Part shown: in pieces, positions 10,258 through 46,854 of the stretch
Position numbering within the stretch: position 1 is the first letter of the stretch
Layout of the letters: every line of letters begins with the position of its first letter
From: Desulfovirgula sp.
GTDB lineage: Bacteria > Bacillota > Desulfotomaculia > Desulfotomaculales > Nap2-2B
NCBI GenBank assembly: GCA_020725585.1
Contig: DYES01000072.1
Location: 921 to 64,920, forward strand
Length of the DNA: 64,000 bases
Reading direction: 5' to 3'
Made by a program: the position numbers and the translations under genes
The notes under the pieces: model-generated
What the model saw: the letters and a program-made list of their open reading frames with translations, nothing else
Databases searched by the model: none
What the model was told of the DNA's origin: nothing

Positions 10258-11163
10258 GTGACGGCTTTGATTATTGAGTTGCGTTATCACCTCGCCTCGC
10301 TGGCCGCTGTTTTTTTAGCCCTCGGTTTGGGAATTCTGATCGGAGGAACAATGCTCAAAACCGATGCGCTGATGGAAAGCCGCCGGCAAATTGCCGACCG
10401 TCTGGAAAGACAACTGGAGCAGCTGCGGCGGGATAACGAAGCTACCCAGGCGCGTCTTGATCGTTTTCAGATGGACAACAACATGCAAAGGGACTTTGCC
10501 AGGCAAATTCTTCCCTGCCTGGTGAAAGGACGACTTGCCGGGCATCAAATAGCGGTCATTGAAACTAATAGTTACGGCTTCCCCGACGATTTGATCGCTA
10601 CCCTTCAACTGGCCGGGGCCGAGGTACAGTCAATTACAACGATCATGAGGGGTTTTGACGGTAGTTTAAACAAAGGAGCGCTGGCCGAAAAATTCGGCGG
10701 GAAGATGTTAAGCGAGGCACAGTTAAATATCCGCCTGGCCAGGGAGATTGCCCGCGGCATTATCCAAAACGATAACCGGCGCGTTCTTGACGATCTGATG
10801 GAAGCCAACATGGTCAAAATATCGGGCCGGTACGGGGTGCCTTTAAATGCCGTGGTCCTGATCGGCGGGAGCCAGGAGCGGGAAATGGTGAAGACAGAGT
10901 CGATCGACTTGCCCCTGATTGAATATTTTCTCGCGAAAAAAATACCCGTTTACGGGGTGGAAGAAACGAATGTCCTTTATTCTTACATGAGGGACTACCA
11001 GAAAAAAAGAATCAGTACTGTGGACAACATTGATACTGTCCCCGGTCAGGTTGCCCTGGTGCTGGCTATGTCCGGACGGCAGGGTCACTACGGAATTAAA
11101 TCCACCGCGCAAAAACTCCTCCCCCCTTGTGATGACCCCGGAGGGGGAGACAGTGCCGGTTAA
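10258..11163 (+). CDS. SteB/MctB-like 'copper transporter' family membrane protein (DUF3186)
   Basis: N-terminal 'LRYHLASLAAVFLALGLGILIGG' followed by a coiled coil, as in MctB/SteB. GTG start directly after the steA-like stop. Confidence 0.7.
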   Translation: MTALIIELRYHLASLAAVFLALGLGILIGGTMLKTDALMESRRQIADRLERQLEQLRRDNEATQARLDRFQMDNNMQRDFARQILPCLVKGRLAGHQIAVIETNSYGFPDDLIATLQLAGAEVQSITTIMRGFDGSLNKGALAEKFGGKMLSEAQLNIRLAREIARGIIQNDNRRVLDDLMEANMVKISGRYGVPLNAVVLIGGSQEREMVKTESIDLPLIEYFLAKKIPVYGVEETNVLYSYMRDYQKKRISTVDNIDTVPGQVALVLAMSGRQGHYGIKSTAQKLLPPCDDPGGGDSAG

Positions 11164-11824
11164 GAAAACGGCAATGGCCATCATACCCGCTTTTAATGAA
11201 GAAGAGCGGATTTTTGAGACAGTGCGGGCGGTGTTTTCCATACCGGAAATTGATGGCGTGCTGGTGGTGGATGACGGTTCCACAGACGGCACCGCCGGGG
11301 CCGCTCGGCTGGCCGGGGCGCAGGTTCTCTCTTTGCCCTCCAACCGGGGAAAAGGAGAGGCCCTTAATCAAGGGGTGGCGAAAATTAAGCCCGACGTAGT
11401 TGTGCTCCTGGATGCAGATTTAGGGGGCACCGCTCAAGAGGCCGGGCGTTTGCTCATGCCGGTTTTGGAGGGGGAGGCGGACATGGCCGTCGCCCTTTTT
11501 CCCGGGAGCGCCCGCAAGGCGGGCTTTGGGCTGGTGAGGCGACTGGCCAGGGCAGGAATAAAATTTTATACCGGTCTGGACATGCAATCTCCCCTTTCCG
11601 GGCAGAGAGCGCTGACAAAAGAAGTACTCCGCCGCGTCATCCCCTTTGCCTCCGGCTTTGGCGTGGAGGTAGCTTTGACCATTAAAGCCGCCCGCGCGGG
11701 GTTTCGAATCCTGGAGGTTCCCGTGAATATGGGCCACAAAGAAACAACCCGCGATTTACCCGGCTTTTTGCACCGGGGGAGGCAGTTCTGGCACGTGGCC
11801 AGGACACTCTGGAAGCTGAGTTGA
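11153..11824 (+). CDS. Family 2 glycosyltransferase (polyprenol-phosphate sugar synthase-like)
   Basis: 'AIIPAFNEEERI', 'VVDDGSTDGT', 'LDADL'. GTG 11153 follows GGAGGGGGAG; the ORF-track start at 11030 lies inside the previous gene. Confidence 0.8.
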   Translation: MPVKKTAMAIIPAFNEEERIFETVRAVFSIPEIDGVLVVDDGSTDGTAGAARLAGAQVLSLPSNRGKGEALNQGVAKIKPDVVVLLDADLGGTAQEAGRLLMPVLEGEADMAVALFPGSARKAGFGLVRRLARAGIKFYTGLDMQSPLSGQRALTKEVLRRVIPFASGFGVEVALTIKAARAGFRILEVPVNMGHKETTRDLPGFLHRGRQFWHVARTLWKLS

Positions 11825-16741: not shown

Positions 16742-16856
16742 TTCGATTCATCTATAACTAAAAAACTGCATTTCATGATTGGTTGGCTTTAACGAAACGG
16801 GAAAGGTAATCAGGCTGAGGTTGGATACTATTTTACGGGGGAGGTGGCGTAACCCC

Positions 16857-17750
16857 ATGGAAAGGCTGGTCGATAGTTTCCTTGGTTACTTGCTCCTGGA
16901 GCGGGGGCTGGCTGAAAATACTCTGGTTTCTTATAAGCTGGACCTCATTGACTTTCATGCCTTTTGTCGGCAGGAAGGTTTCGATCCCCTGTCTTTGACG
17001 GCCCGGCAGGCAATTATCCTCTACCTTTTAAAACTTAAACGGGAAGGCAAGGCGCCGGCGACAGTTTCCCGCCGCCTGGCTGCGTTAAGGACTTTTTATC
17101 GTTTTCTCTTAAACGAGGGGATGTTGCACCAGGACCCCACAAACAACCTGGAATCGCCCCGGATTATGGAAAGGCTGCCTCAGGTGCTGAGCGTTTCCGA
17201 GGTGGAAAGTCTGCTCAACCAGCCCCGGGTAACCGATCCGGCCGGTCTGCGGGATAAAGCCATGCTTGAGCTGCTTTATGCCACCGGCATCAGGGTATCG
17301 GAACTCATTTCGCTCGATCTCGACCAGGTAAATCTCAAGCACGGATTCATTCGCTGTCTGGGAAAGGGGTCCAAGGAGCGCATAATTCCCTTGGGGAGCG
17401 TGGCCAGCCATTACGTTTCTGAATATCTTGTTCGCGCTAGAGCGAAACTAACCAGGGGCAAGCTCACCTCGGCTTTGTTTGTTAACCGGCGGGGCCGCCG
17501 GCTGACTCGCCAGGGTTTCTGGAAAATTATTAAAAAGTACGCGTCCGCGGCCAGAATAAAAAAGGACATTCACCCTCATACCCTGCGTCATTCCTTTGCT
17601 ACGCATATGCTGGAGAACGGAGCGGATTTACGTTCCGTTCAGGAGCTGTTGGGGCACGCCGATATCAGCACCACGCAGATTTACACGCACCTGACCAGGG
17701 CGCGGTTAAAAGAAGTGTACGACCAGGCGCACCCCCGGGCGAATTATTAA
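16857..17750 (+). CDS. xerD: Tyrosine recombinase XerD
   Basis: 'LVDSFLGYLLLERGLAENTLVSYKLDL' and catalytic 'HTLRHSFATHMLENGADLRSVQELLGHADISTTQIYTH'. ATG 16857 follows GGGGGAGGTGG. Confidence 0.9.
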   Translation: MERLVDSFLGYLLLERGLAENTLVSYKLDLIDFHAFCRQEGFDPLSLTARQAIILYLLKLKREGKAPATVSRRLAALRTFYRFLLNEGMLHQDPTNNLESPRIMERLPQVLSVSEVESLLNQPRVTDPAGLRDKAMLELLYATGIRVSELISLDLDQVNLKHGFIRCLGKGSKERIIPLGSVASHYVSEYLVRARAKLTRGKLTSALFVNRRGRRLTRQGFWKIIKKYASAARIKKDIHPHTLRHSFATHMLENGADLRSVQELLGHADISTTQIYTHLTRARLKEVYDQAHPRANY

Positions 17751-32044: not shown

Positions 32045-32717
32045 CCGGGAGAAGATATTGCTTTCCATTACAGCCTTTGCAGCCTTTGCCTATGCCGCCT
32101 ACCATTTTCTCCTGGGCCCCCAGATCAAAGCCTATCAAGACAAAGCGGCCCGGCTGAAGGAAGCCCGGGCGATGTTCGCACACCTGGATGCGCAGGCAGG
32201 CGCCCTAAAGCTGGAGACTGCTGCACTGGAGCAGGCCCAGGCCCGTTTAAAAAAACTGCTCGATAAGTTTTCTACCCAGATGCAGGACGGCCTGTTTCTG
32301 GTGCAGTTTGGCCGGCAGGCCGAAAAAAACGGCGTCCAGATCCGGAAATTTAAACCTTTAGATCCGGTGGATTTCGGGTATATCTCAGTCCTGCCCGTAG
32401 AGATAGAATTGCGCGGCACGTACCCTTCGATAATTTCAGTAATCAATTATCTGGAAAATGTAGCTAACCTGACCGAGATAAGAAACTTAAAATTTCAGGC
32501 CGATACACAACAGACCACCAAAAGCAACCGGCAGGAAGCTGCCACCGTGGGTTCCGCCGTTTACGAAACTCAAGCCGCCCCCCTGCCGGAAACAATAACT
32601 GCCAGTATGTTGTTACTTATCTACTCCCAGCCTTCTCCGGAGGGCAGGATGCAGCTGGAAGAAATCAAGAAATGGAGCGCAGGGCGGCCAAATCCATTCA
32701 TCCCCCAAATAAGGTAA
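32025..32717 (+). CDS. pilO: Type IV pilus assembly protein PilO
   Basis: N-terminal TM plus coiled coil ('LLGPQIKAYQDKAARLKEA'), ferredoxin-like C-terminal domain ('LPVEIELRGTYPSIISVINYLEN'). Confidence 0.75.
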   Translation: MWNRLSNREKILLSITAFAAFAYAAYHFLLGPQIKAYQDKAARLKEARAMFAHLDAQAGALKLETAALEQAQARLKKLLDKFSTQMQDGLFLVQFGRQAEKNGVQIRKFKPLDPVDFGYISVLPVEIELRGTYPSIISVINYLENVANLTEIRNLKFQADTQQTTKSNRQEAATVGSAVYETQAAPLPETITASMLLLIYSQPSPEGRMQLEEIKKWSAGRPNPFIPQIR

Positions 32718-32872
32718 GGGGAGACGCCGACCGGCGGCTTTATAAAGCCGGGGAAAAGGGAGCACAACCGGGCTGTTTGAATAACGAAAAAGTAGTAGTA
32801 AACCACTGTCTGGGAAAAAGGTGGATGAAAAAAGCTAAACACGGGCAGAATTTAAAAAAGGGGTGTTTTATT

Positions 32873-34318
32873 TTGACCGGCCGGAAATTTCCGAAGAATA
32901 TCCCAGATAGAGGGACCCTGAAAGAAGTGCTGGATCTCGCTCTGACCAACGGAGGGGATTTTGCCGACATTTTTATCGAGTTCAAGACGGCTACGGGAAT
33001 CGGGGCGGAAGGCAGAAAGATCGAGCGCGTGCACTCCGGAATCGACGCCGGCGCCGGGATCCGGGTGGTCGCCGGCGAAACCACGGCCTACGCCTACACC
33101 AACGACCTTACACCGCCGGGTTTAAAAGAGGTGGCGCGCACCGTCAGCCGGGCGGTTCAGGCCGGAAAAAAGGAGTACAACCTGGACATGCGCAGCGTAA
33201 AACCGGCGGTCGACTTTCATTTTGAGGAGAGGCCCGACGAGGTGGACACCGCGCGCAAGGCAGAAGCCGTGACCGCCGCCGACCGGGCGGCGCGGGAGGT
33301 GGACAGGAACCTGGTCAAGCAGGTGATCGTCACTTACGGGGATACTATTCAGCAGGTGATCATCGCCAACAGCGCCGGGGAATACGTAGAAGACGAGCGC
33401 ATCCGCACGCGCCTGACGGTCCACGCCGTCGCTGCCGAAAGTGAGGTCATCCAGACAGGGTACGAAGCTGCCGGCAGCCTGGCCGGATTCGATCTTTTGA
33501 AGCGCTGCCCGCCGGAAGAACTGGGGAAAATCGCGGGCACGCGGGCAGTCCAGATGCTCAAGGCCCAGCCCGCTCCGGCCGGGAGGATGCCCGTGATCAT
33601 GGCCGGGGAGGCGGGCGGCACGATGGTTCACGAGGCCTGCGGCCACGGCCTGGAAGCGGACCTGGCCCAGAAGAAGTTATCCGTTTACGCGGACAAGAAA
33701 GGGCAACAAGTCGCCTCCGAACAGGTTACGGTCATCGACGACGCCACCATGGAGGATCGTTACGGCTCCTACCGGTTTGACGACGAAGGTGTGCCGGCGC
33801 GAAAGGTAACTCTGATTGAGAACGGCATCCTTACCGATTACCTGTACGACCGCCTCGCGGCCGGAAAGGAAGAAAGAGAGTCTAACGGCCACGGACGGAG
33901 GGAGTCATACCAGCACAAGCCAATCCCCCGTATGGGCAACACATACATTGCTCCCGGAAAGATGGACCCGGAAAAAATCATCAGGGAAACAAAAAGGGGG
34001 CTGCTGGTAAAAAAGATGGGCGGCGGCCAGGTAAATACCACTAACGGAGACTTCGTTTTTGACGTGGCGGAAGGGTACCTAATTGAAGACGGCGAGGTGG
34101 GGCCAATGGTTCGCGGCGCCACTTTGACGGGCAACGGCCCCGAAGTGCTGAGGATGGTGGAAATGGTCGGACGGGACCTGGGCTTCGCGATCGGCACCTG
34201 CGGAAAAGACGGGCAGGGCGTGCCCGTGAGCGACGCGCAGCCTACCATGGCCATTAAGGAACTGGTTGTCGGCGGCACCGGCCACCCGCATTCCCAGGGG
34301 AAAATTCGCCGTTTATAA
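32873..34318 (+). CDS. tldD: TldD metalloprotease (U62/TldD-PmbA family)
   Basis: HExxxH 'HEACGHGLE', C-terminal 'GTCGKDGQGVPVSDAQPT'. TTG 32873 lies 7 nt after GGGGTG and gives 481 aa; ATG 32825 is the alternative. Confidence 0.88.
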   Translation: MTGRKFPKNIPDRGTLKEVLDLALTNGGDFADIFIEFKTATGIGAEGRKIERVHSGIDAGAGIRVVAGETTAYAYTNDLTPPGLKEVARTVSRAVQAGKKEYNLDMRSVKPAVDFHFEERPDEVDTARKAEAVTAADRAAREVDRNLVKQVIVTYGDTIQQVIIANSAGEYVEDERIRTRLTVHAVAAESEVIQTGYEAAGSLAGFDLLKRCPPEELGKIAGTRAVQMLKAQPAPAGRMPVIMAGEAGGTMVHEACGHGLEADLAQKKLSVYADKKGQQVASEQVTVIDDATMEDRYGSYRFDDEGVPARKVTLIENGILTDYLYDRLAAGKEERESNGHGRRESYQHKPIPRMGNTYIAPGKMDPEKIIRETKRGLLVKKMGGGQVNTTNGDFVFDVAEGYLIEDGEVGPMVRGATLTGNGPEVLRMVEMVGRDLGFAIGTCGKDGQGVPVSDAQPTMAIKELVVGGTGHPHSQGKIRRL

Positions 34319-36052: not shown

Positions 36053-36682
36053 TTACTCGGCTTGTTCGGCAGCGGGCGGGCCGAAAGGCCTAAACCCTTT
36101 ATGTTGTGGCGCGTTCTGGATCTTCTGGATCAGCTCATCGGCCTTTTCCTGCGTGATCTTGCCGTCCTTCACCGCCTGTTGAATAGTCCCAATTCTTAGT
36201 TCTTTCATTTTCTGGTGCAGCTGTTCCATGGATATGCCCTGCTGCTGGGCGATGTCGTCAATTCTTTTCCCTTCTTTCAGCTGGGCTTCCAGTTCATCTT
36301 CGCTCATGCCCAGAGCCTGCGCCAGCAGTGCGGCGTTACCGCCCCTTGCCTGCTTGTGGCCGAAATGCTTGTGGCCGAAAAAGGGGCTGAAGAACCACTG
36401 GTCGTTTTGCAGTTTTTCTTTGATTTTCGCCGCCTGATCCGGTGTCATCTTACCCTGCTGGACGGCTTCGTCAACCATTTGCTGCTGCGTTTGTTTGATG
36501 GCTTCCGTTACCCTTTCTTTGTCCACCCCGAGGTTGGCTGCAAACTTGTCCAGGAAAGTCTGGAAGAACTGGGGAACCTTGTCCGTGTTCGCGTTGGGCG
36601 CGGCTTGCGCCAGGGCAATTCCCGCAAAGAGCGCGGTCAAAACTAGAGCAGCCAGGGTTGCCATTAAGATTTTTCTTTTCAA
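36053..36682 (-). CDS. Secreted YckD/DUF2680-like protein with duplicated LTXXQ-type helices and a His-rich linker
   Basis: TTG start 5 nt after GGAAGGAGGAG. Signal peptide 'KRKILMATLAALVLTALFAGIALAQA'. Internal duplication '...QQGKMTPDQAAKIKEKLQN' / '...KDGKITQEKADELIQKIQN'. 'FFGHKHFGHK' recalls the YckD 'HHPHPHKFEH' tail. Confidence 0.6.
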   Translation of the reverse strand: MKRKILMATLAALVLTALFAGIALAQAAPNANTDKVPQFFQTFLDKFAANLGVDKERVTEAIKQTQQQMVDEAVQQGKMTPDQAAKIKEKLQNDQWFFSPFFGHKHFGHKQARGGNAALLAQALGMSEDELEAQLKEGKRIDDIAQQQGISMEQLHQKMKELRIGTIQQAVKDGKITQEKADELIQKIQNAPQHKGFRPFGPPAAEQAE

Positions 36683-36907
36683 GTGTACTCCTCCTTCCAA
36701 GGAATGTATCTTTTGTTTGGTGAAAATACAACTGCCGGTTGTGCTTTGGCACCACCTCCTGGGAATTAATGTTTGTGTGGGACATTTTCGGCACCCCTTG
36801 ATCTTAGTAAAGCAAAAACTTGTTGCAAATCTAAGGAGATTTTATGGTGGATTTGTTAAAGGTTAGTCAATAATTTTTGGACATTTTGATTCATGTTGAG
36901 GGTTTTT

Positions 36908-38680
36908 TTAAGCCGGCGCCAGCGGCAAGGTAAAGCTAAAGGTAGAGCCAATTCCCTCCCGGCTGCTCACCAGGACCTTTCCGCCGTGAATTTCCACAAT
37001 TTGCTTCACGATGGCCAGACCCAGGCCGGTTCCGCCCAAAGCGCGCGATCGTGATTTTTCGACCCGGTAAAAGCGCTCCCAGATATGCGGCAGGTCCTCT
37101 TCCGGGATGCCCGGGCCCTGGTCGGTGAAGCTTATTGTTACTTCTTCCCCGGAAAAAGAGGCCTGCATTTTGATCACCCCGCCGGGCGGGGAAAAACGGA
37201 TGGCATTTTGTAAAAGGTTAATCAAAACTTGCTCGATGCGCTCTTCGTTTGCCGGCAGGATGGGAGCGTCACGGGGTATTTTCTGCTCAATGCGCAGGTT
37301 CTTTTCTTCCAGTTGGGGCTTAAGTTTTAGCAAAACGCCGGCAAATAAATCGGGTATGTGGATGGGATTCAGGTCCCAGCTTATTTTGCCCGATTCCAGC
37401 CGCGCCAGGTCCAGCAGTTCGTTAATCAGGCGGCCCAGGCGCAGGCTTTCCTCGTGGATTACCTTTAAGTACTCTGCTTGAACTGTTCTGTCTATGGTTA
37501 CTTCATCGAGAAGGGCTTCGGTGAAGCCCTGGATGGAAGTAAGGGGGGTGCGTATTTCGTGGGAAACGTCCGCTATAAAGTCGCGGCGGAGCTGTTCCAG
37601 CTTCTTAGCTTCAGTAATGTCCTTAATCACCCCCACTGCCCCGTAGATAACCTGGTCCCTTCCCCGAAGGGGAGCCACCCGGGCGGAAAGGATAATTTTC
37701 CCGCCGGACAGGGTAAATTCTAAAGAACCCTGTTCCCCTGTCTCCATAACCTTCTTAAAAAGAGCTCCCAGAGGCTGACAACCCTCAAAACTCGCTAAAT
37801 CCTGGTCGAGAGCTTTTTTTTGTTCCAATCCAAGAAGGTATTCCGCCGCCGGGTTGAGAAGGGTCGTTTTCCCAGCTAGATCGGTGGCGATGACTCCCTC
37901 GGCCAGGTTGGAAAGAATGTTTTCGTTTTGCGTCTTTTCCCGGGAGAGCTTGTTGATCGTCTGCTCCAGCTCAACGCCCAGTTGGTTGAAGTTTTCGGCA
38001 AGCCTGCCTATTTCATCTTGGGAGGTTACCGGGATGTGTTGGCGGAAGTTTCCCCTGGCCATCTCCAGGGTAAGCGCACTCATTTGTTTTATGGGGCGGG
38101 ATATCGAGCGGGACAGGCAGTACGCCGGGATGAGCGCAAGGAGAATGGCAACCCCCGCTGAATACAAAATTAGCCTCTGGACGGCCGAGACGGTCGCCCG
38201 GATATCAGCCACGGGGGTGGAAAGGAGGATTGCCCCTGCAACCTGTTCCCTGTACGTGAAGGGGACCGCCGCCGTTAAAATCGTCTGGTTGGACCGCGGG
38301 ATCTGTCTTTGCCAGGTGATCGCCCGCCCCTGAAGGAGCTTCTGGCCGTCGGCCGGTTCCAGGGGAAGCGGGTGGAGGCCGGGGCCCGGATTCAGGGAGG
38401 AGTCCAAAACCTCCCTGCCGACGATCATGATCCGGGTGTCCTGCTGGGTGCGCAGGCTCCGGGCAGTTAAAAAATTGATCGTTTCTCTGTTTGCCTGCTC
38501 CCCCAGGGAAGCGCTAAAAAGGCCGGCAATCTCTTCCCCCTGGCTGACGAGCTCCTTTTCTTTGGTGTAAAAGTAAAAGGAGTTGAAGAGCCAGGACAGA
38601 ACCAGGCTGGTTACCACAAGGGTAACAAGGATGATTCCCGCAAAGGACACGAGCAGCCTGCTAAATAGGCTCTTGCCCAT
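36908..38680 (-). CDS. Sensor histidine kinase (2 TM + extracytoplasmic loop, HAMP, PAS, HisKA, HATPase_c)
   Basis: H-box 'SHEIRTPL', 'NLLQNAIRFSP', 'GTGLGLAIVK'. ATG abuts the RR stop (TGAATG). Confidence 0.9.
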   Translation of the reverse strand: MGKSLFSRLLVSFAGIILVTLVVTSLVLSWLFNSFYFYTKEKELVSQGEEIAGLFSASLGEQANRETINFLTARSLRTQQDTRIMIVGREVLDSSLNPGPGLHPLPLEPADGQKLLQGRAITWQRQIPRSNQTILTAAVPFTYREQVAGAILLSTPVADIRATVSAVQRLILYSAGVAILLALIPAYCLSRSISRPIKQMSALTLEMARGNFRQHIPVTSQDEIGRLAENFNQLGVELEQTINKLSREKTQNENILSNLAEGVIATDLAGKTTLLNPAAEYLLGLEQKKALDQDLASFEGCQPLGALFKKVMETGEQGSLEFTLSGGKIILSARVAPLRGRDQVIYGAVGVIKDITEAKKLEQLRRDFIADVSHEIRTPLTSIQGFTEALLDEVTIDRTVQAEYLKVIHEESLRLGRLINELLDLARLESGKISWDLNPIHIPDLFAGVLLKLKPQLEEKNLRIEQKIPRDAPILPANEERIEQVLINLLQNAIRFSPPGGVIKMQASFSGEEVTISFTDQGPGIPEEDLPHIWERFYRVEKSRSRALGGTGLGLAIVKQIVEIHGGKVLVSSREGIGSTFSFTLPLAPA

Positions 38681-39361
38681 TCATTCAGTCACCCCGAACC
38701 GGTAACCCTTTCCCCAAACCGTGACGATGTAGTTCTTGCTCCCGGGGTTTTTAAGTTTTTCCCGTAACTTTTTGATATGTGTGTCTACCGTTCGGGAATC
38801 CCCGGGGTATTCATAACCCCAGACCTGTTCTAATATTTGCTCGCGCGAGTAAACGCGCTGGGGGTGGGAGGCTAAAAACCATAACAGATCAAACTCTTTA
38901 GGGGTGAGTTGGATCTCCTGTCCCCAGGCCTCTACCCGGCAGGCGTTACGGTCGATCAGCAGCCCGGGGTAGCATAAAACGTCATTCTGGCTGCCGGCAA
39001 GCTTTGCGCGACGCAATACCGCCTTCACCCTGGCCACCATTTCGCGGGGGCTGAAAGGCTTGGTGATATAGTCGTCGGCGCCCAGTTCTAAGCCAAAGAC
39101 ACGGTCAAATTCCTCGCCTCTGGCCGTCAGCATGATGATGGGGACTGTCAAGTTTTTTCTGATTTCTTTGCAGACGGTCCAGCCGTCCAGTTTGGGCAGC
39201 ATGAGATCCAAAAGGATCAGGTCGGGGACGAAAGAGCGCAGCATCGCAAGCGCTTTTTCCCCGTCTTCGGCCGTTTCTACTCGGAAACCTTCCCTTCTCA
39301 GATATACGCTTACCAACTCGCGGACAGGCTCTTCGTCTTCGACCACGAGGATGGTCTCCAT
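38681..39361 (-). CDS. OmpR/PhoB-family response regulator
   Basis: Receiver 'ILVVEDEEPVREL...DLILLDLMLPKLDG'; winged-helix 'LTPKEFDLLWFLASHPQRVYSREQIL...VWGKGYRF'. Confidence 0.92.
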   Translation of the reverse strand: METILVVEDEEPVRELVSVYLRREGFRVETAEDGEKALAMLRSFVPDLILLDLMLPKLDGWTVCKEIRKNLTVPIIMLTARGEEFDRVFGLELGADDYITKPFSPREMVARVKAVLRRAKLAGSQNDVLCYPGLLIDRNACRVEAWGQEIQLTPKEFDLLWFLASHPQRVYSREQILEQVWGYEYPGDSRTVDTHIKKLREKLKNPGSKNYIVTVWGKGYRFGVTE

Positions 39362-39627
39362 GGGCGGCTGCTCGCCTCCTGATATATATAGATAATAATT
39401 TTTTTGTTTTTCAGAGTTGAGTAATTTATACCAGGTTTTTGTTACGATTTTGTGAACAAATTCAGATCAAAAAGTGAATAATTTGGTTGACAAACCCAAT
39501 GATGCTTTCTGTTTGGAAATTTTTCATATTTTGTTCACAGGTTGGCAACAATTTCTTGCTACTGTTTAAGGAGGAATTTTAAATTGTCTTTAGGCAGTTT
39601 GGATTAAGTGTGGGAGGCTTTCTGCCC

Positions 39628-39666
39628 ATGATAAACGCTACAACAAAAATAATTCAAAAAAAGTAA
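39628..39666 (+). other. 12-codon mini-ORF (MINATTKIIQKK*) with its own SD, in frame with and 3 nt upstream of the lipoprotein GTG
   Basis: GGGAGG (39612-39617), 10 nt, then ATG. TAA at 39664-39666, then GGG, then GTG 39670 in the same frame. A second SD-equipped mini-ORF (AAGGAGGA-8 nt-TTG, MSLGSLD*) lies at 39584-39607. Confidence 0.35.
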
Positions 39667-39669
39667 GGG

Positions 39670-40287
39670 GTGTTCAATCTGTTTAAAAAATTAGTAATTA
39701 TTGTGCTTATATTTGCTTTTGTAACAAGTGGCGGATGCACTAGCGTTGGCAAAGAAGAGCCCAAAAATAATGGTAAAACTGCTGTTGCAGAAAACGAAAA
39801 GATAGTTCTTCCGGAAGAAAAACCGGAGTTGGTGGGCAGAGTTAAAGATATTGTCGGTAATGAGGTGACTGTATATAAGGTTCAGGCCGATACGCAAACA
39901 GAGCCGGGCGGAGGAAGCCGGAATCTGCCGGACCAAAGTGCAAACCAGAATAATAGAGGGGCCATGATGAGAGCAACTGCGATGAGAGTAACGGATGAAA
40001 CTGAAACGTTTATTATCCCTGTAGGCACTCCCATAGTCACAATCCAAAGGGGTACTGATGAAGTTAAAGCCATTAACTTAACGGAAATAAAAAAAGACCA
40101 GATTTTAAGGATATGGAAGAAAGATGGTTCGGTTGTATTTGTGCAAGTTATGGGCGGCATTGGAGAAAGGGCTGGAAACAGGGGCTCGGGAAACCCAGCC
40201 GAAGGGGCTAGAAGCGGGGAAGGTTTTGGCGGTGCAGGACCGGGTATGGGCGTGAGGGAAGGTCCGGGTGGCATCAGACAGCCATGA
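39670..40287 (+). CDS. Lipoprotein of unknown function with Gly-rich C-terminal tail, first gene of the efflux operon
   Basis: Lipobox 'VTSGGC'. No family recognised. The stop overlaps the ABC ATPase start (ATGA). AT-rich codon usage. Confidence 0.6.
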   Translation: MFNLFKKLVIIVLIFAFVTSGGCTSVGKEEPKNNGKTAVAENEKIVLPEEKPELVGRVKDIVGNEVTVYKVQADTQTEPGGGSRNLPDQSANQNNRGAMMRATAMRVTDETETFIIPVGTPIVTIQRGTDEVKAINLTEIKKDQILRIWKKDGSVVFVQVMGGIGERAGNRGSGNPAEGARSGEGFGGAGPGMGVREGPGGIRQP

Positions 40288-40973
40288 GCAGTAACCCAAA
40301 GTGCGTTATAGATGCAAAGAATATAGTAAAAATCTACCAAAGTGGGTCGGAAGAACTGAGGGTCCTGGATGATGTGAACCTACAAGTCTATGAAGGAGAG
40401 TTTATGGCAATCTTAGGGCCCTCCGGGTCGGGTAAATCTACCTTGATGAATATACTGGGCTGTTTGGATTTACCAACCTCCGGGCAGTATTATTTAGACG
40501 GTTTGGATATCCTGAAAGCCAAAGAGAATCAATTGGCAGAAATCCGAAACAAAAAAATTGGTTTTGTCTTTCAAAAGTTTAATTTGCTGCCCCGGCTAAC
40601 AGCCGTCCAAAACGTCATGCTTCCGCTATTGTATCGAGGGGTAGACGAAAAGGAAGCAATTAAGTTAGCTAAGGAAAAACTGGATTTGTTAGGGTTGGGG
40701 GACAGGTGCAATCACTTGCCGAACGAGTTATCCGGAGGGCAGCAGCAGCGGGTTGCCATTGCAAGGGCGATAATTGGCAATCCCAACATCCTGTTAGCAG
40801 ATGAGCCCACTGGTAACTTAGATAGCAAATCCGGAAAAGATGCCATAGAAATCTTTAAGAGTCTCAATAAACAAGGAAATACCATAATAGTTATTACTCA
40901 TAACAATGAAGTGGCTGAGCAGGCGAAAAAAATAATCTACTTACGGGATGGTAAAATTTATGAGCATAATTAA
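40284..40973 (+). CDS. MacB/LolD-type ABC transporter ATP-binding protein
   Basis: Walker A 'GPSGSGKST', signature 'LSGGQQQRVAIARA', Walker B 'ILLADEPTGNLD'. Confidence 0.92.
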   Translation: MSSNPKCVIDAKNIVKIYQSGSEELRVLDDVNLQVYEGEFMAILGPSGSGKSTLMNILGCLDLPTSGQYYLDGLDILKAKENQLAEIRNKKIGFVFQKFNLLPRLTAVQNVMLPLLYRGVDEKEAIKLAKEKLDLLGLGDRCNHLPNELSGGQQQRVAIARAIIGNPNILLADEPTGNLDSKSGKDAIEIFKSLNKQGNTIIVITHNNEVAEQAKKIIYLRDGKIYEHN

Positions 40974-42123
40974 GAGCTGGTGGTTGAAATTAAGAACAAA
41001 AAAGCGCTTAGGGATGGTTATTCTATTAATTATCCTTTGGGCGGCTGGAACAGGTTTATGGATAAAGAAGAACGGCAGCGAAAAAAGCGCAGAAATCCAA
41101 TATGAGCAAGCAAAGGTTAGAAGAGGCGATATTATTGTTGGCTTTGAATCTGACGGTAATATCGCTTTTTCCAAGGTAAACCTAAGGTTCGGGGTGAAGG
41201 GGACGATATCTGAAATATTGGTGAACGAGGGCAGTAAAGTTAAAAAGGGTGACATTATTGCCAAATTAGACAGCCAGGATTACCAGGACCAGTATCAGCT
41301 GGCTTTAGCGAAGCTAACAGACGCCCAGGAACAAAAAATAACAAATCTTCTTGATGATGAATTGAAGATCAAGAACGCGGAAATTGAGCTGCAAAAACTA
41401 AAAGACACGTACAGAGAAATGGAAGCTTTGCCCGATGCGTACTCGCCAAACGAATTAAAGATGAAAAAAATGGAGCTGGAAAATAAAGAAATAGAATATA
41501 AGAACATGTTAAGAAAATTTGAATTACAGCAGAACAAAGAATTGAACCAGGAAGAACTGGCGGTTAAAATGGCCAAAGAAAACTTGGAAGATACAATTTT
41601 GTACTCTCCAGTTTCAGGCACCATATTAACTTTGTCAAACAAAGTAGGGGAAAGTATTTCTGATGAGAAGGATTTTGCTGTAATTCATGAAAACGATGCG
41701 ATAAAGGCGATAACGAAGGTAATAGAGTATGATGTTGGCCAGATTAAAGTGGGGCAAAAAGTATACGTGACCGTGGAGGCCCTTCCGGATCAAAAATTTG
41801 TGGGTGAAGTATGCAAGGTAAACTCCTTGCCGCTGGCTGATTCTACGGGTCTGGTGAATTATTCGGTAGAGATTGATATTAAAGATCCCGGTCCGGAGCT
41901 AAAAGATGGTATGAGTTGCACAGTCTCTTTTGTGGTAAAAGAGGTGAAAGATTGCTTAATTGTGCCTTATAAGGCTGTTAAAATTATTAACCAAAAACAG
42001 TTCGTAACTGTTATTGATGAGGATGGTCAAACGACAGAAAGAGAAATAAAAACGGGATTTACCGATGGGAACAGTGTAGAAGTTTTGGAAGGTCTGAAAG
42101 TAAACGAAACTGTGGTTTTTTAA
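40960..42123 (+). CDS. Periplasmic-adaptor / membrane-fusion protein (HlyD/MacA family)
   Basis: N-terminal TM, lipoyl-like 'GTISEILVNEGSKVKKGDIIAKLD', long coiled-coil hairpin, beta-barrel 'SPVSGTILTL'. Start ATG 40960 or 40948. Confidence 0.85.
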   Translation: MSIIKSWWLKLRTKKRLGMVILLIILWAAGTGLWIKKNGSEKSAEIQYEQAKVRRGDIIVGFESDGNIAFSKVNLRFGVKGTISEILVNEGSKVKKGDIIAKLDSQDYQDQYQLALAKLTDAQEQKITNLLDDELKIKNAEIELQKLKDTYREMEALPDAYSPNELKMKKMELENKEIEYKNMLRKFELQQNKELNQEELAVKMAKENLEDTILYSPVSGTILTLSNKVGESISDEKDFAVIHENDAIKAITKVIEYDVGQIKVGQKVYVTVEALPDQKFVGEVCKVNSLPLADSTGLVNYSVEIDIKDPGPELKDGMSCTVSFVVKEVKDCLIVPYKAVKIINQKQFVTVIDEDGQTTEREIKTGFTDGNSVEVLEGLKVNETVVF

Positions 42124-42141
42124 AAAAAAGAAGGTGATTTT

Positions 42142-43317
42142 TTGCAGCTAAAGCAGCTTTTGAAGATAATCTTAATAAACATTTACCATAACAAAATGCG
42201 GACCTTCCTGACTACATTGGGGGTAATCGTCGGCACCGCCACTATTTTTCTCGTCGTATCGATCGGCAAAGGCGGAGAGGCTAAGGTTAATGAGCAGTAT
42301 TCCAGGCTGAATGTAGGAACCATAATTGTTGCCCCGGCCCAGAGGGGAAGAGTTGTCGACCCGTTAACAGAAAAAGACGCGCAGATGTTCGAGAAAAGCG
42401 GCAATATTGCCCATGCCTTTCCTGTATTACGGGGGTCCGGGGATATAAACTATGGTAATTTTTCCTTTCGGGGTAACTTTTCAGCAATACTTCCGAAGTT
42501 TCAGGCGAGTAATAACCTAACTGTTCAATATGGCAGAGCCCTTGCGGATGAAGACGAGACCAAAAAAAATAAATGCGCAGTTCTAGGAGCGGAATTGGCA
42601 AACACACTTACGGACGGCAATCCTTCTAGGATAGTCGGGGAAAATATTAGCATCAATGGTCGAAGATTTGAGGTAATCGGAATCTATAACCGGGTGGGAG
42701 ATTCAAGTTACGACGAATCAGCTTTTATTGTTTACTCCGTGGGAAAAAAATATTTGTTGGGAACCAGGGCAAACCCAACGATTATAGTGCAGGCTACGGG
42801 TATAAAAACAGTTCAATCAGCTATCGAAGATATTAAAGCTGTTCTTGACGAGACTCATCGCCTGGGAGGTTCAGAGCAATTCCGTGTTTTGGACGCAGGA
42901 AGCAGGCTGTTAGCCGCGCAGGAATCAGCCCGGACTATGTCCCTCCTTTTGCTGGCCGTCGCGATAGTCGTCTTAATTGTAAGTGGCATTGGCATTATGA
43001 ACGTAATGTTCGTGACAGTAAAAGAACGGACCAGGGAAATCGGAATATTAAAGGCAATTGGCGCCAAAAAGAAAGATATATTAAGTCAGTTTTTAATAGA
43101 GGCCGTTATTATCAGCCTGGCAGGCGGAGTAATTGGCGTTATAGCCGGCTTTTTTTCCATACCTGTTTTAAAATATTTCGAGCTTCCATCCCTTCCATCA
43201 ATAAACGGGGTTTTATTAGGGTTAATATTTTCCGTGTTAACGGGGATATTTTTCGGGTTTTATCCGGCCTGGAAAGCCGCTGACTTGAACCCGATCGAAG
43301 CGTTAAGATATGAGTAA
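42142..43317 (+). CDS. MacB-type ABC permease (FtsX fold with large extracytoplasmic domain)
   Basis: 'MRTFLTTLGVIVGTATI', ~220-aa external domain, C-terminal 'ERTREIGILKAIGAKKKDI...FGFYPAWKAADLNPIEALRYE'. Confidence 0.9.
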   Translation: MQLKQLLKIILINIYHNKMRTFLTTLGVIVGTATIFLVVSIGKGGEAKVNEQYSRLNVGTIIVAPAQRGRVVDPLTEKDAQMFEKSGNIAHAFPVLRGSGDINYGNFSFRGNFSAILPKFQASNNLTVQYGRALADEDETKKNKCAVLGAELANTLTDGNPSRIVGENISINGRRFEVIGIYNRVGDSSYDESAFIVYSVGKKYLLGTRANPTIIVQATGIKTVQSAIEDIKAVLDETHRLGGSEQFRVLDAGSRLLAAQESARTMSLLLLAVAIVVLIVSGIGIMNVMFVTVKERTREIGILKAIGAKKKDILSQFLIEAVIISLAGGVIGVIAGFFSIPVLKYFELPSLPSINGVLLGLIFSVLTGIFFGFYPAWKAADLNPIEALRYE

Positions 43318-43331
43318 AAGGGGATAAAAAA

Positions 43332-44543
43332 ATGAATAAAAAGCTAATCTTATTACTAACCATGCTGATTGTCCTGAGCTTCTGTGCAACTGGACATGCT
43401 TCTGAGGATAATGTTATTACGTTAGACCAGGCCAGGATGCTTGCCAATTCAAACAGCCGCAACTTAGCCAAATATGATCTAAAAGTGAAAAAGGCGCAAT
43501 ATCAGCTGTACCAGTTGGAGGCTCAGCGCAACGATATTTACTACCAATCAAACTATTTGTTTAACCGATACAATAGCTTATACGAAAAGTACTACTCACT
43601 CCAGGAACAATTAAACCAGGGTGACGAAAGCGTTGTTCCCCAGATGGATGAAATAATGGAAGAAATCCAAAATATTGAAAGAGAAATGGAAACACAGTCC
43701 GAAAAGATAAGCGCACTGGAAGACAGTATAGAAAGCGCCGAAATGAATTACGATGAAAGTACCGTAAACAAGAATAACTTCGAGAAGCAACTGCAATTCG
43801 AAGTTGATCGACTTTACGTAACAATATTAAATCAGGAAGATGCTCTTCTAACGGCAGGCAAGGAATACGAATTAAAGCTTAATTTGTTAAATGTGGAAAA
43901 AACCAGATTAAATCTGGGCAGCAGCAGCCTGCAGAAAGTAGACCAAATGGCCGCAGAGGTAGCCGATCAGAAAAAAAGAATAGTGGAGCAAACTCACTTA
44001 ATTAAAACCCTGAAAGGTAAATTGAATGTCATGATGGGGAGGGGTTATGACGATGAATTAAAATTGGTCCCTTTTAACGTACCGGACGCCGTTGAGGTGC
44101 CTAAATATGATCAATTATTGTCAAACGCTTTTCAAAAATATAATGTTCTAAAAAAGCTGCAAAACGAAATAGAGCAGGACGAAGATGAGTTAGAAGATGA
44201 GAATGATTATTATCAAAGTATATTGTTGGGTCTCCAGATTGAAGAGAAAAAGTTACAGCTAGAAGATGAAGAGATAAAATTAAAGGAAATGGTTTACAAT
44301 CTATTGGCAGACCTGGAAGCAAAGCAAGAAGACTATTGTTTATCTATAATCAATTATGAAAATGCCAAAAAGGCGTTTGAGTGGGATAAAAAGAGGTTTG
44401 AAATGGGCCATATTTCTAAACTTTCCCTTATGAAAAGTGAATTAAGCTATCTGAATGCAAAAAACAAGAAAACTTCATCAGGATATGCATTTTATTTAGC
44501 TGAACGTACTTTAAGGCTGGCTGAAGAGGGTATATTTGTGTAG
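43332..44543 (+). CDS. TolC/OEP-like secreted coiled-coil protein
   Basis: Signal peptide 'KKLILLLTMLIVLSFCATGHA'. 'ITLDQARMLANSNSRNLAKYDLKVKKAQYQL' and C-terminal 'RFEMGHISKLSLMKSELSYLNAKNKKTSSGYAFYLAERTLRLAEEG' mirror the two OEP repeat signatures. Confidence 0.65.
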   Translation: MNKKLILLLTMLIVLSFCATGHASEDNVITLDQARMLANSNSRNLAKYDLKVKKAQYQLYQLEAQRNDIYYQSNYLFNRYNSLYEKYYSLQEQLNQGDESVVPQMDEIMEEIQNIEREMETQSEKISALEDSIESAEMNYDESTVNKNNFEKQLQFEVDRLYVTILNQEDALLTAGKEYELKLNLLNVEKTRLNLGSSSLQKVDQMAAEVADQKKRIVEQTHLIKTLKGKLNVMMGRGYDDELKLVPFNVPDAVEVPKYDQLLSNAFQKYNVLKKLQNEIEQDEDELEDENDYYQSILLGLQIEEKKLQLEDEEIKLKEMVYNLLADLEAKQEDYCLSIINYENAKKAFEWDKKRFEMGHISKLSLMKSELSYLNAKNKKTSSGYAFYLAERTLRLAEEGIFV

Positions 44544-44557
44544 TTGAAAACAGGGCC

Positions 44558-45052
44558 ATGGAACCCATCATCACCCTTGATGCGGTTATCCTGGGCAAAG
44601 TGGAAGGCCCGTGATTGTCGGCGGCGACCCGGCAAAGCGCCACGGGGTGGTGCTGGCCGCCAGCTACGAGGCCAAGGCCAAAGGGGTCAAGACCGGGATA
44701 ACCGTCTACGAAGCCCAAAGGCTTTGCCCAGGAGCAGTCTATTTTCAGCCCCAGCATCACCTCTACGTCCACTTTTCCGCCCGCATCCTGCGCATCCTGC
44801 GCATCATGCGCAGCTTCACTCCCTTAGGCGAGCCCTTTTCCATCGACGAGGCCTTTTTAGACATGACCGGCTGCGAAAAACTTTTCGGTTCCCGGTCTGG
44901 CCGCCCGCCGCGCTGAACAACTAACCCTCTTTGGAGAAAGAGAAAAGCTAAAAAACAGCGGGAAGGCCTGTGATTTGATCCGCAGCAGGTTTGGATCCAA
45001 GGCCATTTTCCGGGCCGTTTCGCTCACGAAGGCGGGTGTCTACCATGCGTGA
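44558..45052 (+). pseudogene. dinB: Decayed Y-family DNA polymerase IV gene: frameshifted N-terminus, ~250-aa internal deletion, C-terminal stub
   Basis: 'MEPIITLDAVILGKVEGP*' then a +frame 'VIVGGDPAKRHGVVLAASYEAKAKGVKTG...PFSIDEAFLDMTGCEKLFGS'. It then jumps to a C-terminal-type 'QLTLFGEREKL...DLIRSRFGSKAIFRAVSL' in another frame. The catalytic 'DMDAFYASVE' block is destroyed. Confidence 0.75.
44782..44808 (+). repeat. 9-bp tandem repeat (CGCATCCTG x2 + CGCATCATG) inside the dinB relic
   Basis: Read directly: cgcatcctg cgcatcctg cgcatcatg, encoding (A)RILRILRIM. Confidence 0.9.
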
Positions 45053-45308: not shown

Positions 45309-45504
45309 GCGTGCGGGCTGTATCTGAAAAGTTTCCCGCCGCCCCGGGCAAAATAAGCTGCTGGAATCACGGCAGGAAAAAATGGCGGGCAAGGAGAATA
45401 ACAAATGTGTAAAGCTCGCATGGCGGGGAAAGTTTTTTGCGCCGTTCCTCCGCATAGGCTCATTTCCATTGCATAATACTAAAGTGGGAAGGAGCGAAAA
45501 GCCA

Positions 45505-46854
45505 GTGATTCAGGAAAGCGATTTTTTGAGCCTGGGCAGTTTTGTCTGCGAACGGGCCAGGCGCTGCGGAGCGGCAGAGGTCGAAGCCTACCTTTCCGAG
45601 AACAAAGAGATCGCGATCGAAGTGCGCAACCAAGAGGTGGAAACAATGAAGCTGGCCCGGGAACAGGGTCTGGGCCTGCGCGTGATTGTAGCGCACAAAG
45701 TGGGCTTTGCCTTTACTTCTGATTTGAGTAAAGAAGCCCTGGAGGAAATTGTTCGGCAGGCGCTGGCCAACGCCCGGGAGGTTGCCGAAGACCCGTTCCG
45801 CCGGCTGCCCCCTCCCTCTCCCCAATATCCGAACCTCGCTCTTGATGATCCCGCCATCCCGGATACCCCCCTGGAGGAGAAGATAAAACTGGCCAAAACG
45901 CTGGAGGAATCGGGAAAGACTTTCGACCCCCGGGTAAAAATCTGCGAGCGTTCGGCTTACGAGGACGTTCAAACCAGGATCGCCCTGGTGAATACTTTAG
46001 GCCTGGCTAGCATCTACCAGGCGACTTACTGCGGCCTTTACCTCTCCCTGGTGGCGGAAGAAAACGGCGACCAGCAGACAGGCTTTGCCGTTCAACACAG
46101 CTTGCGCTTTCACGATTTAAACCCCTGGGAGCTGGGGCGCGAAGCTGCCGGGCGGGCGGTCCGAATGCTGGGCGCAAAACCGGTAACCACCCGGAAAATT
46201 CCGGTAATCCTGGACCCTTACGTGGCGGTGGGTTTCTTAAATCTGTTGGCGCCGGGCCTCACCGCGGAAGCCGTTCAAAAGGGCCGCTCTCTGTTTAGGG
46301 GAAAAGTGGGGCGGCAAGTCGCCGCGCAGAAAATAACCCTGGTTGACGACGGTATTTTGCCGAACGGAATTGCCTCCGCTCCATTTGACGGCGAAGGAAG
46401 CCCGATGTCCCGCACCGTGTTAATCCAGGAGGGGGTTCTGCAGGGGTTTTTGCATAACACGTATACGGCTGCGAAGGATAACACTCTTTCAACCGGGAAC
46501 GGCGTCCGCACCTCCTATAAAAGCACTCCGGAAGTGGGCACCACGAACTTTTTTATCGAGCCGGGCAACGTTTCTCCGGGTGAGTTAATCAGCGAGTTGC
46601 AGGAAGGTTTTTACGTTACGGATGTCATCGGCATGCATACCGCCAACCCCATCTCGGGAGATTTTTCCGTTGGCGCGACAGGAATTTTAATTGAAAACGG
46701 CGAATTAACCCGTCCGGTGAGGGGGGTGGCGATAGCCGGGAACATTCAGGAGATGCTTCACCAGGCGGACGGTGTGGGGAACGACCTGAGATTTTTCGGC
46801 AGCTACGGTTCGCCCACCATCCGGATCGCCCGGCTGTCTGTCAGCGGACACTAA
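45505..46854 (+). CDS. pmbA: PmbA/TldE metalloprotease partner of TldD
   Basis: U62 family throughout ('AEVEAYLSENKEIAIEVRNQEVE', 'FDGEGSPMSRTVLIQEGVLQGFLHN', 'GDFSVGATGILIENGE'). GTG 45505 follows GGGAAGGAG and gives 449 aa. Confidence 0.88.
   Translation: MIQESDFLSLGSFVCERARRCGAAEVEAYLSENKEIAIEVRNQEVETMKLAREQGLGLRVIVAHKVGFAFTSDLSKEALEEIVRQALANAREVAEDPFRRLPPPSPQYPNLALDDPAIPDTPLEEKIKLAKTLEESGKTFDPRVKICERSAYEDVQTRIALVNTLGLASIYQATYCGLYLSLVAEENGDQQTGFAVQHSLRFHDLNPWELGREAAGRAVRMLGAKPVTTRKIPVILDPYVAVGFLNLLAPGLTAEAVQKGRSLFRGKVGRQVAAQKITLVDDGILPNGIASAPFDGEGSPMSRTVLIQEGVLQGFLHNTYTAAKDNTLSTGNGVRTSYKSTPEVGTTNFFIEPGNVSPGELISELQEGFYVTDVIGMHTANPISGDFSVGATGILIENGELTRPVRGVAIAGNIQEMLHQADGVGNDLRFFGSYGSPTIRIARLSVSGH

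Follow-up and report, generated by a model that had tools for sequence, protein, structure and literature searches.

A 64-kb window of a Desulfovirgula sp. genome (contig DYES01000072.1 of assembly GCA_020725585.1, positions 921 to 64,920; "the window" below means this whole stretch) contains an AT-rich island at 39362-44543, in which a cassette of five intact open reading frames (ORFs), all on the forward strand, encodes a lipoprotein, an ATP-binding cassette (ABC) ATPase, a membrane-fusion (adaptor) protein, a MacB-type permease, and a TolC-like protein (Table 1). The genes are tightly coupled: the lipoprotein and ATPase ORFs share a 4-nt ATGA overlap, the adaptor gene starts (at 40948 or 40960) within the ATPase gene, and gaps of 18 and 14 nt precede the permease and TolC-like genes, respectively; an earlier note on this DNA, made from the sequence without database searches, had described these junctions (including the overlaps at 40284 and 40960), and all of the details hold. 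The GC content of the island is 0.407, compared with 0.543 for the rest of the window (z = -9.1 relative to same-size windows elsewhere), and the lowest same-size window outside the island is never below 50.5% GC. Both edges are sharp in a 200-nt GC profile, which drops from ~0.52-0.60 to 0.30-0.39 near 39300, and returns from 0.39 to 0.57-0.63 at ~44500, near the TolC-like stop codon. The GC content at third codon positions (GC3) is 0.40-0.47 in the five cassette genes, versus 0.66 in the adjoining response regulator and kinase genes. The note's estimate of a deviant 37-45% GC for the island thus agrees with the computed 40.7% (against 54.3%), whereas the 55-70% that it gave for the surroundings was too high (1-kb windows outside the island range from 0.45 to 0.62).

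Table 1. Features of the island and its flanks (positions in the window unless another locus is named).
Feature	Position	Strand	Basis
Lipoprotein, 205 aa; signal peptide and Cys23, Gly/Pro-rich tail	39670..40287	+	alignment A2, AlphaFold2
ABC ATPase of the MacB/LolD/DevA clade, 229 aa; separate polypeptide	40284..40973	+	ABC_tran 120 bits
Membrane-fusion (adaptor) protein, 391 aa; start maybe 40960	40948..42123	+	HlyD_D23, TIGR01730
MacB-type permease, 391 aa; first transmembrane segment, extracytoplasmic MacB_PCD, FtsX C-terminal transmembrane bundle	42142..43317	+	Pfam
TolC-like protein, 403 aa; secreted	43332..44543	+	Pfam OEP, AlphaFold2, Foldseek, hydropathy
AT-rich divergent control region, 308 bp	39362..39669	.	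inverted pair I2
OmpR-family response regulator, 226 aa; divergent from the cassette	38681..39361	-	Response_reg and Trans_reg_C
Sensor histidine kinase, 590 aa; HAMP, PAS, HisKA, HATPase_c	36908..38680	-	Pfam
Secreted DUF2680 protein, 215 aa; last gene of the regulator-kinase-DUF2680 unit	36053..36700	-	DUF2680 31.9 bits (cutoff 25)
Decayed Y-family (DinB/ImpB-type) DNA polymerase pseudogene; island 3′ edge	44555-45040		starts 12 nt past the TolC-like stop
DUF2680/helical-repeat genes elsewhere	L019 4304-4921; L003 ~11058-11573; L004 3186-3914		

TolC-family proteins are textbook outer-membrane channels. In TolC itself, each protomer contributes four strands to a barrel of 12 in total; in each repeat they are found between the ascending helix and the descending one. 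The TolC-like protein of the island matches the Pfam family OEP (PF02321) with 33.4 bits (gathering cutoff 22) in two stretches and has a cleavable signal peptide at its N-terminus, as expected from the secreted 403-aa protein with both OEP-repeat signatures that the note had recognized; against TIGR01844 it reaches only 24.3 bits (cutoff 225). An AlphaFold2 model, based on an alignment of 21 homologues, has a mean predicted local distance difference test (pLDDT) score of 91.4 and consists, past the signal peptide, of helices only (residues 31-41, 43-95, 99-194, 200-234, 259-289, 293-357, and 363-398). At the positions of TolC's strands the model has three-residue turns (96-98 and 290-292), and neither repeat contains a strand. 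We compared the model with the PDB using Foldseek, and each of the 44 matches with E <= 0.001 is a TolC-family outer-membrane channel (TolC, ST50, OprM, OprN, OprJ, CmeC, CusC, SilC, VceC, and MtrE), with TM-scores of ~0.45-0.59 over ~330 columns at 10-15% identity; no other fold scores better than E = 0.06. Structure prediction of this gene product, which the note had proposed as a check, therefore gave the helices of the alpha-barrel without beta-strands, together with a match to the TolC-family fold.

Other properties of the mature protein agree with the model. Its highest 19-residue hydropathy is 0.42, so it has no hydrophobic segment after the signal peptide; charged residues make up 31% of it, for a net charge of -23. 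In repeat 2 the descending helix has 65 residues, about the length of TolC's long helices, and the predicted alpha-barrel should be of normal height, ~100 Å. The descending helix of repeat 1 has 96 residues and its partner 53, which leaves an extra hairpin of ~30 residues per arm (~45 Å) where the barrel would begin; this variable helical hairpin extension spans approximately residues 62-132. At the sequence level, a profile of the TolC-like family (A1) found only coiled-coil noise among PDB sequences (including the designed hairpin WA20, on residues 56-148); what it picked up for the extension was confined to helical hairpins, designed or natural, in keeping with the model. In an hhalign comparison with E. 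coli TolC (an approximate sequence) tip 2 alone aligned, with negligible probability. Since no sequence link to solved TolC structures was obtained, the relationship is supported by the Pfam OEP model and by the fold search.

We searched 1.84 billion representative proteins with the profile and found 1401 representatives at E <= 1e-3, 75 of them at E <= 1e-30. The 150 best representatives (clustered at 50% identity) were aligned to the profile, and turns were counted in the alignable ones: the distal turn region of repeat 2 comprises 13-33 residues (21 in the window protein), which is too short for two strands and a loop. Across the 150 best homologues both proximal tip loops are almost invariant in length, and the extension of repeat 1 varies from ~0 to ~112 residues and is the least conserved part (column identity 0.45, versus 0.64 overall). 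The two proximal tip turns carry an invariant L195-G196 and an invariant G359, and tip 2 ranks with the best-conserved windows (0.81). The TolC-like protein is thus predicted to lack the outer-membrane beta-barrel, and this would be a property of its clade and not of one model. As modelled, it is a TolC homologue without the barrel that marks the family's outer-membrane members, to be likened to the tunnel part of TolC and not to an outer membrane factor. Given this predicted absence, the paradox of an OEP protein without an outer membrane largely dissolves.

The remaining export components are consistent with the MacA-MacB-TolC tripartite logic that the note had read from the gene set, since the Pfam and NCBIfam assignments agree with it (ABC_tran; HlyD_D23 and TIGR01730; MacB_PCD and FtsX; OEP). 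The best NCBIfam matches of the ATPase are the N-terminal half of MacB (267.6 bits), DarD (242.9 bits), and LolD (237.4 bits), all under the equivalog cutoffs, which indicates membership of the MacB/LolD clade and not an equivalog. The permease (MacB_PCD, 97.6 bits; FtsX, 83 bits) has hydrophobic segments at residues 20-45, 261-295, and 312-377, and is of the type with four transmembrane segments. The ATPase and permease are not fused: they are encoded by separate genes, with the adaptor gene in between, and across loci they share 72-79% and 68-81% identity, respectively. The adaptor scores 62.3 bits with HlyD_D23, 46.4 bits with HlyD_3, and 143.8 bits with TIGR01730 (RND_mfp; cutoff 94.9); it has a single N-terminal transmembrane segment (residues 19-41) and an alpha-hairpin of ~105 residues, whose tip, Y-x-EMEA(I/L)P(D/E)AYS, is more conserved than its arms (0.82 vs 0.72). 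The adaptor orthologue of locus L019 carries YknX-type Pfam labels.

The fifth component is the lipoprotein. Its alignment (28 homologues) comprises a signal peptide, two conserved beta-rich segments divided by a variable low-complexity loop, and a Gly/Pro-rich tail. Cys23, which follows the hydrophobic h-region, is invariant in these homologues, and lipidation is predicted from the lipobox (SGGC in the window protein). AlphaFold2 gives a split small beta-barrel (core pLDDT > 90, 67 overall) with a disordered variable loop. The note had called this Gly-tailed lipoprotein unfamiliar, and it belongs to no Pfam or NCBIfam family; none of the 28 members matched Pfam when all were scanned, the profile search returned only uncharacterised proteins, and the best that Foldseek obtained from the PDB was small OB/S1-like barrels at E = 0.17 or worse. 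A lone UniRef label, "DUF5666", could not be confirmed with Pfam, and a degenerate adaptor reduced to the beta-barrel domain was rejected (hhalign of alignment A2 against A3: 2.7% probability, 11 columns). In several homologues (P0193, P0198, P0200, P0201, P0212, and P0213) the variable loop holds a helical insert that resembles the helical-repeat proteins described below. The lipoprotein could be an accessory subunit or a cargo. Its GTG start at 39670 directly abuts a likely ribosome-binding site (AAGGGG), so the true start may be a few codons downstream; in other loci we find GAGGTG, a spacing of 4-6 nt, and ATG.

Scanning one genome per species yielded 18 loci, 16 of them complete, and the order of the five genes is identical in all 16, with the lipoprotein gene first in each. 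The hosts are Desulfoscipio geothermicus, Desulfallas, Desulforamulus, and Desulfotruncus, as well as metagenome-assembled genomes (MAGs) labelled Peptococcaceae, Desulfotomaculum, Clostridia, Bacillota, and Thermoanaerobacterales; the lipoprotein family also reaches Heliobacteria and Alkalibacter. All named hosts fall in Firmicute groups known as monoderm. Between the two closest loci, the ratio of nonsynonymous to synonymous substitution rates (dN/dS) is 0.32 for the lipoprotein, 0.17 for the adaptor, 0.10 for the permease, and 0.18 for the TolC-like protein (the ATPase was left unscored, as its dS is saturated), which indicates that the cassette is kept by selection in its carriers. Desulfoscipio geothermicus DSM 3669 has two diverged full cassettes on separate contigs (L002 and L003). 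A 2.3-kb contig with the TolC-like gene (L015) was binned as Desulfuromonadales, probably a misbinning.

The cassette is divergent from a unit encoding an OmpR-type regulator, a kinase, and a DUF2680 protein, and a two-component system adjoins the cassette in most loci, with varying position and orientation. Homologues of the regulator (44-65% identity) are found directly upstream of the cassette in L004, L008, L009, L016, and L018; the kinase, which has a host-like GC3 of 0.66, has a full-length homologue (47% identity) upstream of the cassette in L004. The control region contains an inverted pair (I2) of candidate boxes, one at 39439-39460 facing the regulator gene and the other at 39520-39551 (TTCATA-N5-TTCACA) facing the cassette, each arm with TTCAyA-type half-sites 11 bp apart. 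At least nine other loci have a related array, TTTCACAATTTCCCATAATT..TTCATA..CCACA, upstream of the cassette; the array that they share has four yCAyA units, spaced 10-11 bp, and then a -10-like hexamer. These spacer repeats are candidate response-regulator boxes. The DUF2680 protein has a signal-peptide-like N-terminus and is a probable accessory of the sensing module; either it or a related secreted protein built of helical repeats, with G(K/T)(L/I)TPEQA motifs, is encoded beside the cassette or the two-component system in L001, L002, L003, L004, L005, L007, L011, L012, and L019. In addition, stress-type genes lie nearby in L004 (LTXXQ/Spy-like) and L019 (PspA). The two-component system, the DUF2680 and helical-repeat proteins, and the LTXXQ and PspA neighbours point to an envelope-stress module.

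Taken together, these observations lead us to favour, with somewhat better than even confidence, the interpretation that the locus encodes a tripartite ABC exporter of the MacB type, under two-component control and fitted to an envelope with a single membrane. Homology with MacAB-TolC and Spr0693-0695 suggests a 2:2 motor of permease and ATPase, over which six copies of the adaptor would make a tube like that of E. coli MacAB or S. pneumoniae Spr0693-0695; three helix-only TolC homologues would then dock tip-to-tip on the adaptor hairpins. The TolC-like trimer would add an alpha-barrel of ~100 Å and three hairpin prongs of ~45 Å, and, since the modelled Spr0693-0695 assembly rises ~154 Å above the membrane (PMC5768738), the duct could reach ~25-30 nm from the membrane (estimated from helix lengths), crossing the wall zone and a thin peptidoglycan, perhaps up to an S-layer. 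Substrates would be taken from the outer face of the membrane and expelled by MacB-style mechanotransmission; by analogy with Gram-positive MacB-type pumps they may be antimicrobial peptides, toxins, or other amphiphiles. The adjoining OmpR-type regulator and kinase would probably induce expression, with the secreted DUF2680/helical-repeat protein as a likely accessory. The more specific proposal, that the helix-only clade and the adaptor hexamer make an all-protein duct of ~25-30 nm through the Gram-positive wall, with the lipoprotein and the DUF2680/two-component unit as dedicated parts, is one that we hold tentatively, at a little short of even chances; it includes the idea that the TolC homologues predicted to be helix-only make up a large clade, with 150 or more representatives at 50% identity. 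Among the three readings offered by the note, the wall-spanning conduit is the best supported, in line with the barrel-less model.

Several points weigh against this exporter. Both the trimer and the way it would dock onto the adaptor are proposed by homology, and R-x3-L-x6-S (RLS), the canonical hairpin-tip motif through which adaptors contact TolC in the AcrA/MacA literature, is not kept: in 17 orthologues the Arg position is occupied by R/K/Q/M/A/L/E, and only the Leu/Ile and the Ser are retained, with altered spacing, so that the contact between adaptor and TolC-like protein, if real, is a variant one. On the other side of the proposed contact, tip 1 of the TolC-like protein shows no more than average conservation (0.63). 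The protein is secreted and has no anchor, SLH domain, or wall-binding domain, and its retention would thus depend wholly on the proposed docking. The AlphaFold2 alignment is shallow (21 sequences), and high scores are common for long helices. The monoderm status of the host is taken from relatives at >=90% identity that are labelled Moorella sp., and the probable control of the cassette by the adjoining two-component system is argued from sequence motifs only.

A variant that we regard as unlikely keeps the same pump and has the TolC-like trimer housed in, or anchored to, a proteinaceous S-layer, as in the model of Stubenrauch et al. (2022, PMC8809574), where our favoured reading has it retained in the wall just by the adaptor tube. 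That study found S-layer genes in monoderm carriers and shedding of the C. difficile protein together with S-layer proteins (PMC8809574); a thesis, as cited in PMC11170357, reports association with surface-layer and cell-wall proteins. The acidic hairpin extension, whose low conservation (0.45) is given above, could contact a layer specific to each lineage; but it is almost absent in many homologues, and hence is no universal anchor. Moreover, Pfam finds an SLH or other S-layer-binding domain in none of the five proteins, and no S-layer gene was seen in the examined parts of the window.

We consider it quite improbable that the MacB module is instead a mechanotransmitter or extractor (FtsEX-like or LolCDE/Aat-like), with the lipoprotein as its client or cargo and the TolC-like tube as a route or scaffold. 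The invariant first position of the lipoprotein gene and the restriction of its family to monoderm Firmicutes would fit such a role, as would the inclusion of LolCDE and FtsEX among MacB relatives (PMC5768738) and the proximity of the ATPase to LolD in NCBIfam. However, the cassette has no hydrolase or acyltransferase gene, the permease reaches 60 bits against a LolC/E cutoff of 362, a lipid-anchored cargo would have no obvious destination past a single membrane, and the lipoprotein is under the weakest constraint of the scored genes.

The composition of the island bears on its origin. As the GC deficit reaches third codon positions, amino-acid composition alone is insufficient to explain it and horizontal arrival is the natural reading; the low GC fits arrival of the cassette from a lower-GC monoderm relative. 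Across loci, the GC3 of the cassette is below that of the host in every host with GC3 >= 0.5 and equals it in low-GC hosts; for example, it is 0.60 in L018, versus 0.82-0.86 for the host (0.86 for the adjoining two-component system), and 0.42 versus 0.62 in L001. The GC3 of the adjoining two-component genes tracks the host and not the cassette, a pattern that fits an accessory cassette with a reservoir of ~40% GC, repeatedly transferred or replaced without its regulator. That the island is a recent import from a diderm Firmicute, non-functional in its host, strikes us as very improbable. The strong GC and GC3 deficit with sharp edges and the decayed polymerase gene at the 3′ edge would agree with it, but the five ORFs are intact and coupled, relatives evolve under purifying selection, the closest relatives are all in lineages known as monoderm, the alignable ones among the 150 best representatives leave no room for strands at the repeat-2 turn, and a two-component system of host GC with matching candidate boxes adjoins the island. 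Of this second reading of the note, horizontal acquisition is thus upheld by composition, while the diderm donor and the lack of function are not, given that the named relatives are all monoderm and that the cassette is conserved under selection.

No more credible, and equally improbable, is a TolC-like protein that serves as a conduit of the spore outer membrane, or that sits in the outer membrane of a diderm host: spoIIIAA and spoIIIAE are in the window and OEP is otherwise an outer-membrane family, but the model has no beta-strands and the protein no hydrophobic or amphipathic membrane segment, control is apparently exerted by the two-component system (candidate regulator boxes) and not by a sporulation promoter, and the Firmicutes that possess a lipopolysaccharide outer membrane are Negativicutes and Halanaerobiales (PMC5007114). 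Two housekeeping proteins of the host group at >=90% identity with partial proteins of MAGs labelled "Moorella sp.". The type IV pilus locus encodes PilB, PilT, PilC, a prepilin peptidase, minor pilins, PilX_N, PilM, PilN, and PilO, and then runs straight into tldD with no secretin-sized ORF, as the note had observed; together with the Moorella sp. clustering, this leaves the note's suggestion of a diderm host unsupported in the 64 kb covered, and the spore-membrane variant of its first reading is disfavoured by the missing membrane-compatible segment and the candidate regulator boxes. One relative of the window PilB at 90% identity is labelled Armatimonadota, probably a binning error.

Returning to the single-membrane exporter, its general kind is already known. 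TolC-like proteins are widespread in monoderm Firmicutes, often in operons with two other pump components (Stubenrauch et al., 2022, PMC8809574); the note's "poorly described" envelope machine is therefore a fair description, and an undescribed one it is not. The monoderm carriers lack the beta-barrel assembly machinery (BAM), housing in the S-layer was proposed, and an "omission in the beta-barrel domain" was pointed out in a homology model of the C. difficile protein (PMC8809574). The S1 dataset of that study lists an orthologue, A0A1I6EGW8 from Desulfallas geothermicus (PMC8809574), whose opening 61 residues match our entry P0005, which is 52% identical to the window TolC-like protein. The locus described here resembles those pumps in that a Firmicute with a single membrane encodes a Sec-secreted OEP protein together with an adaptor and a transporter; it is a further, horizontally acquired example of them. 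Unlike the published homology model, which kept a hydrophilic barrel region, our AlphaFold2 model has none. The system also differs from C. difficile CD630_24060-24080, a version of the monoderm pump driven by a resistance-nodulation-division (RND) transporter (PMC11170357), in having a split MacB-type ABC transporter, a conserved lipoprotein, and a two-component and DUF2680 unit. The literature searched contained no work on the structure or function of the ABC-type cassette. New here are the confident helix-only prediction and its generality in the clade, the conserved five-gene cassette with a lipoprotein, and the associated sensing unit.

Among the better-studied relatives, E. coli MacAB-TolC shares with the present system a MacB_PCD/FtsX permease, a MacB-clade ATPase, a hairpin adaptor, a TolC-fold duct, and Gly in the tip loops; it differs in that here the ATPase and permease are split, RLS is not conserved, the 12-stranded barrel is missing, a helical hairpin extension is present, and there is no outer membrane. 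Cyanobacterial DevBCA-HgdD likewise has a DevA-like ATPase, a DevB-like adaptor, and a MacB-type permease (NCBIfam DevA 211.7 bits and DevB 75.3 bits for the window proteins, both below cutoff). DevBCA works with the TolC homologue HgdD, a true outer-membrane channel in a diderm, and its substrate is heterocyst glycolipid. The separate ATPase and permease genes match the Gram-positive, Lol, and Dev layouts. Closest in envelope are Spr0693-0694-0695 of S. pneumoniae and YknWXYZ of B. subtilis, with a split ATPase and permease and an adaptor in a single membrane; their adaptors form a hexameric nanotube, and they are implicated in resistance to antimicrobial peptides and toxins (PMC5768738, PMC4887032). 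Unlike the present cassette, these systems end at the adaptor apex, without a TolC-like part or a cassette lipoprotein (YknW is a membrane protein).

How and where TolC-like proteins assemble in BAM-less, single-membrane Firmicutes is a question raised by Stubenrauch et al. (PMC8809574). For the helix-only clade our model suggests an answer: with the barrel gone and the helical tunnel remaining, neither a membrane nor BAM would be needed. If true, a diderm-type machine would have been re-used in a walled, single-membrane envelope, which bears on the diderm-to-monoderm transition in Firmicutes. An envelope-spanning duct of this sort would set the exporter apart from the tripartite pumps of diderms and from the MacAB-like pumps of Gram-positives, which have two parts. 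Desulforamulus ruminis and Desulfoscipio geothermicus are culturable carriers in which a wall-spanning duct could be imaged.

Finally, we looked at the surroundings of the island. We found no direct repeats bracketing it, no integrase or transposase inside it, and no plasmid match; a XerC/D-type tyrosine recombinase (Phage_integrase and SAM-like N domain) is encoded at 16779-17750, 22 kb upstream, with no link to the island found. Two TldD/PmbA-family genes of the window (32672-34318 and 45382-46854) lie 11 kb apart, and between them are PGA_cap, DUF2680, the kinase, the regulator, the island, and the polymerase remnant. The cassette of Desulfotruncus arcticus (L017) is located between pilus genes and pmbA-aroQ-pepQ-efp (the TldD/PmbA-family gene at 10148-11491 of L017), so a position near TldD/PmbA and pilus genes is common to both despite the foreign-looking GC. 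We therefore rejected a single recent horizontal gene transfer as the whole story: the persistent GC3 deficit across hosts and the shared pmbA-proximal position indicate a more complicated history. The polymerase remnant consists of a short N-terminal ORF, a frameshift, a 101-aa fragment (positions 24-112 of 148 in the IMS profile), and a C-terminal scrap beyond.

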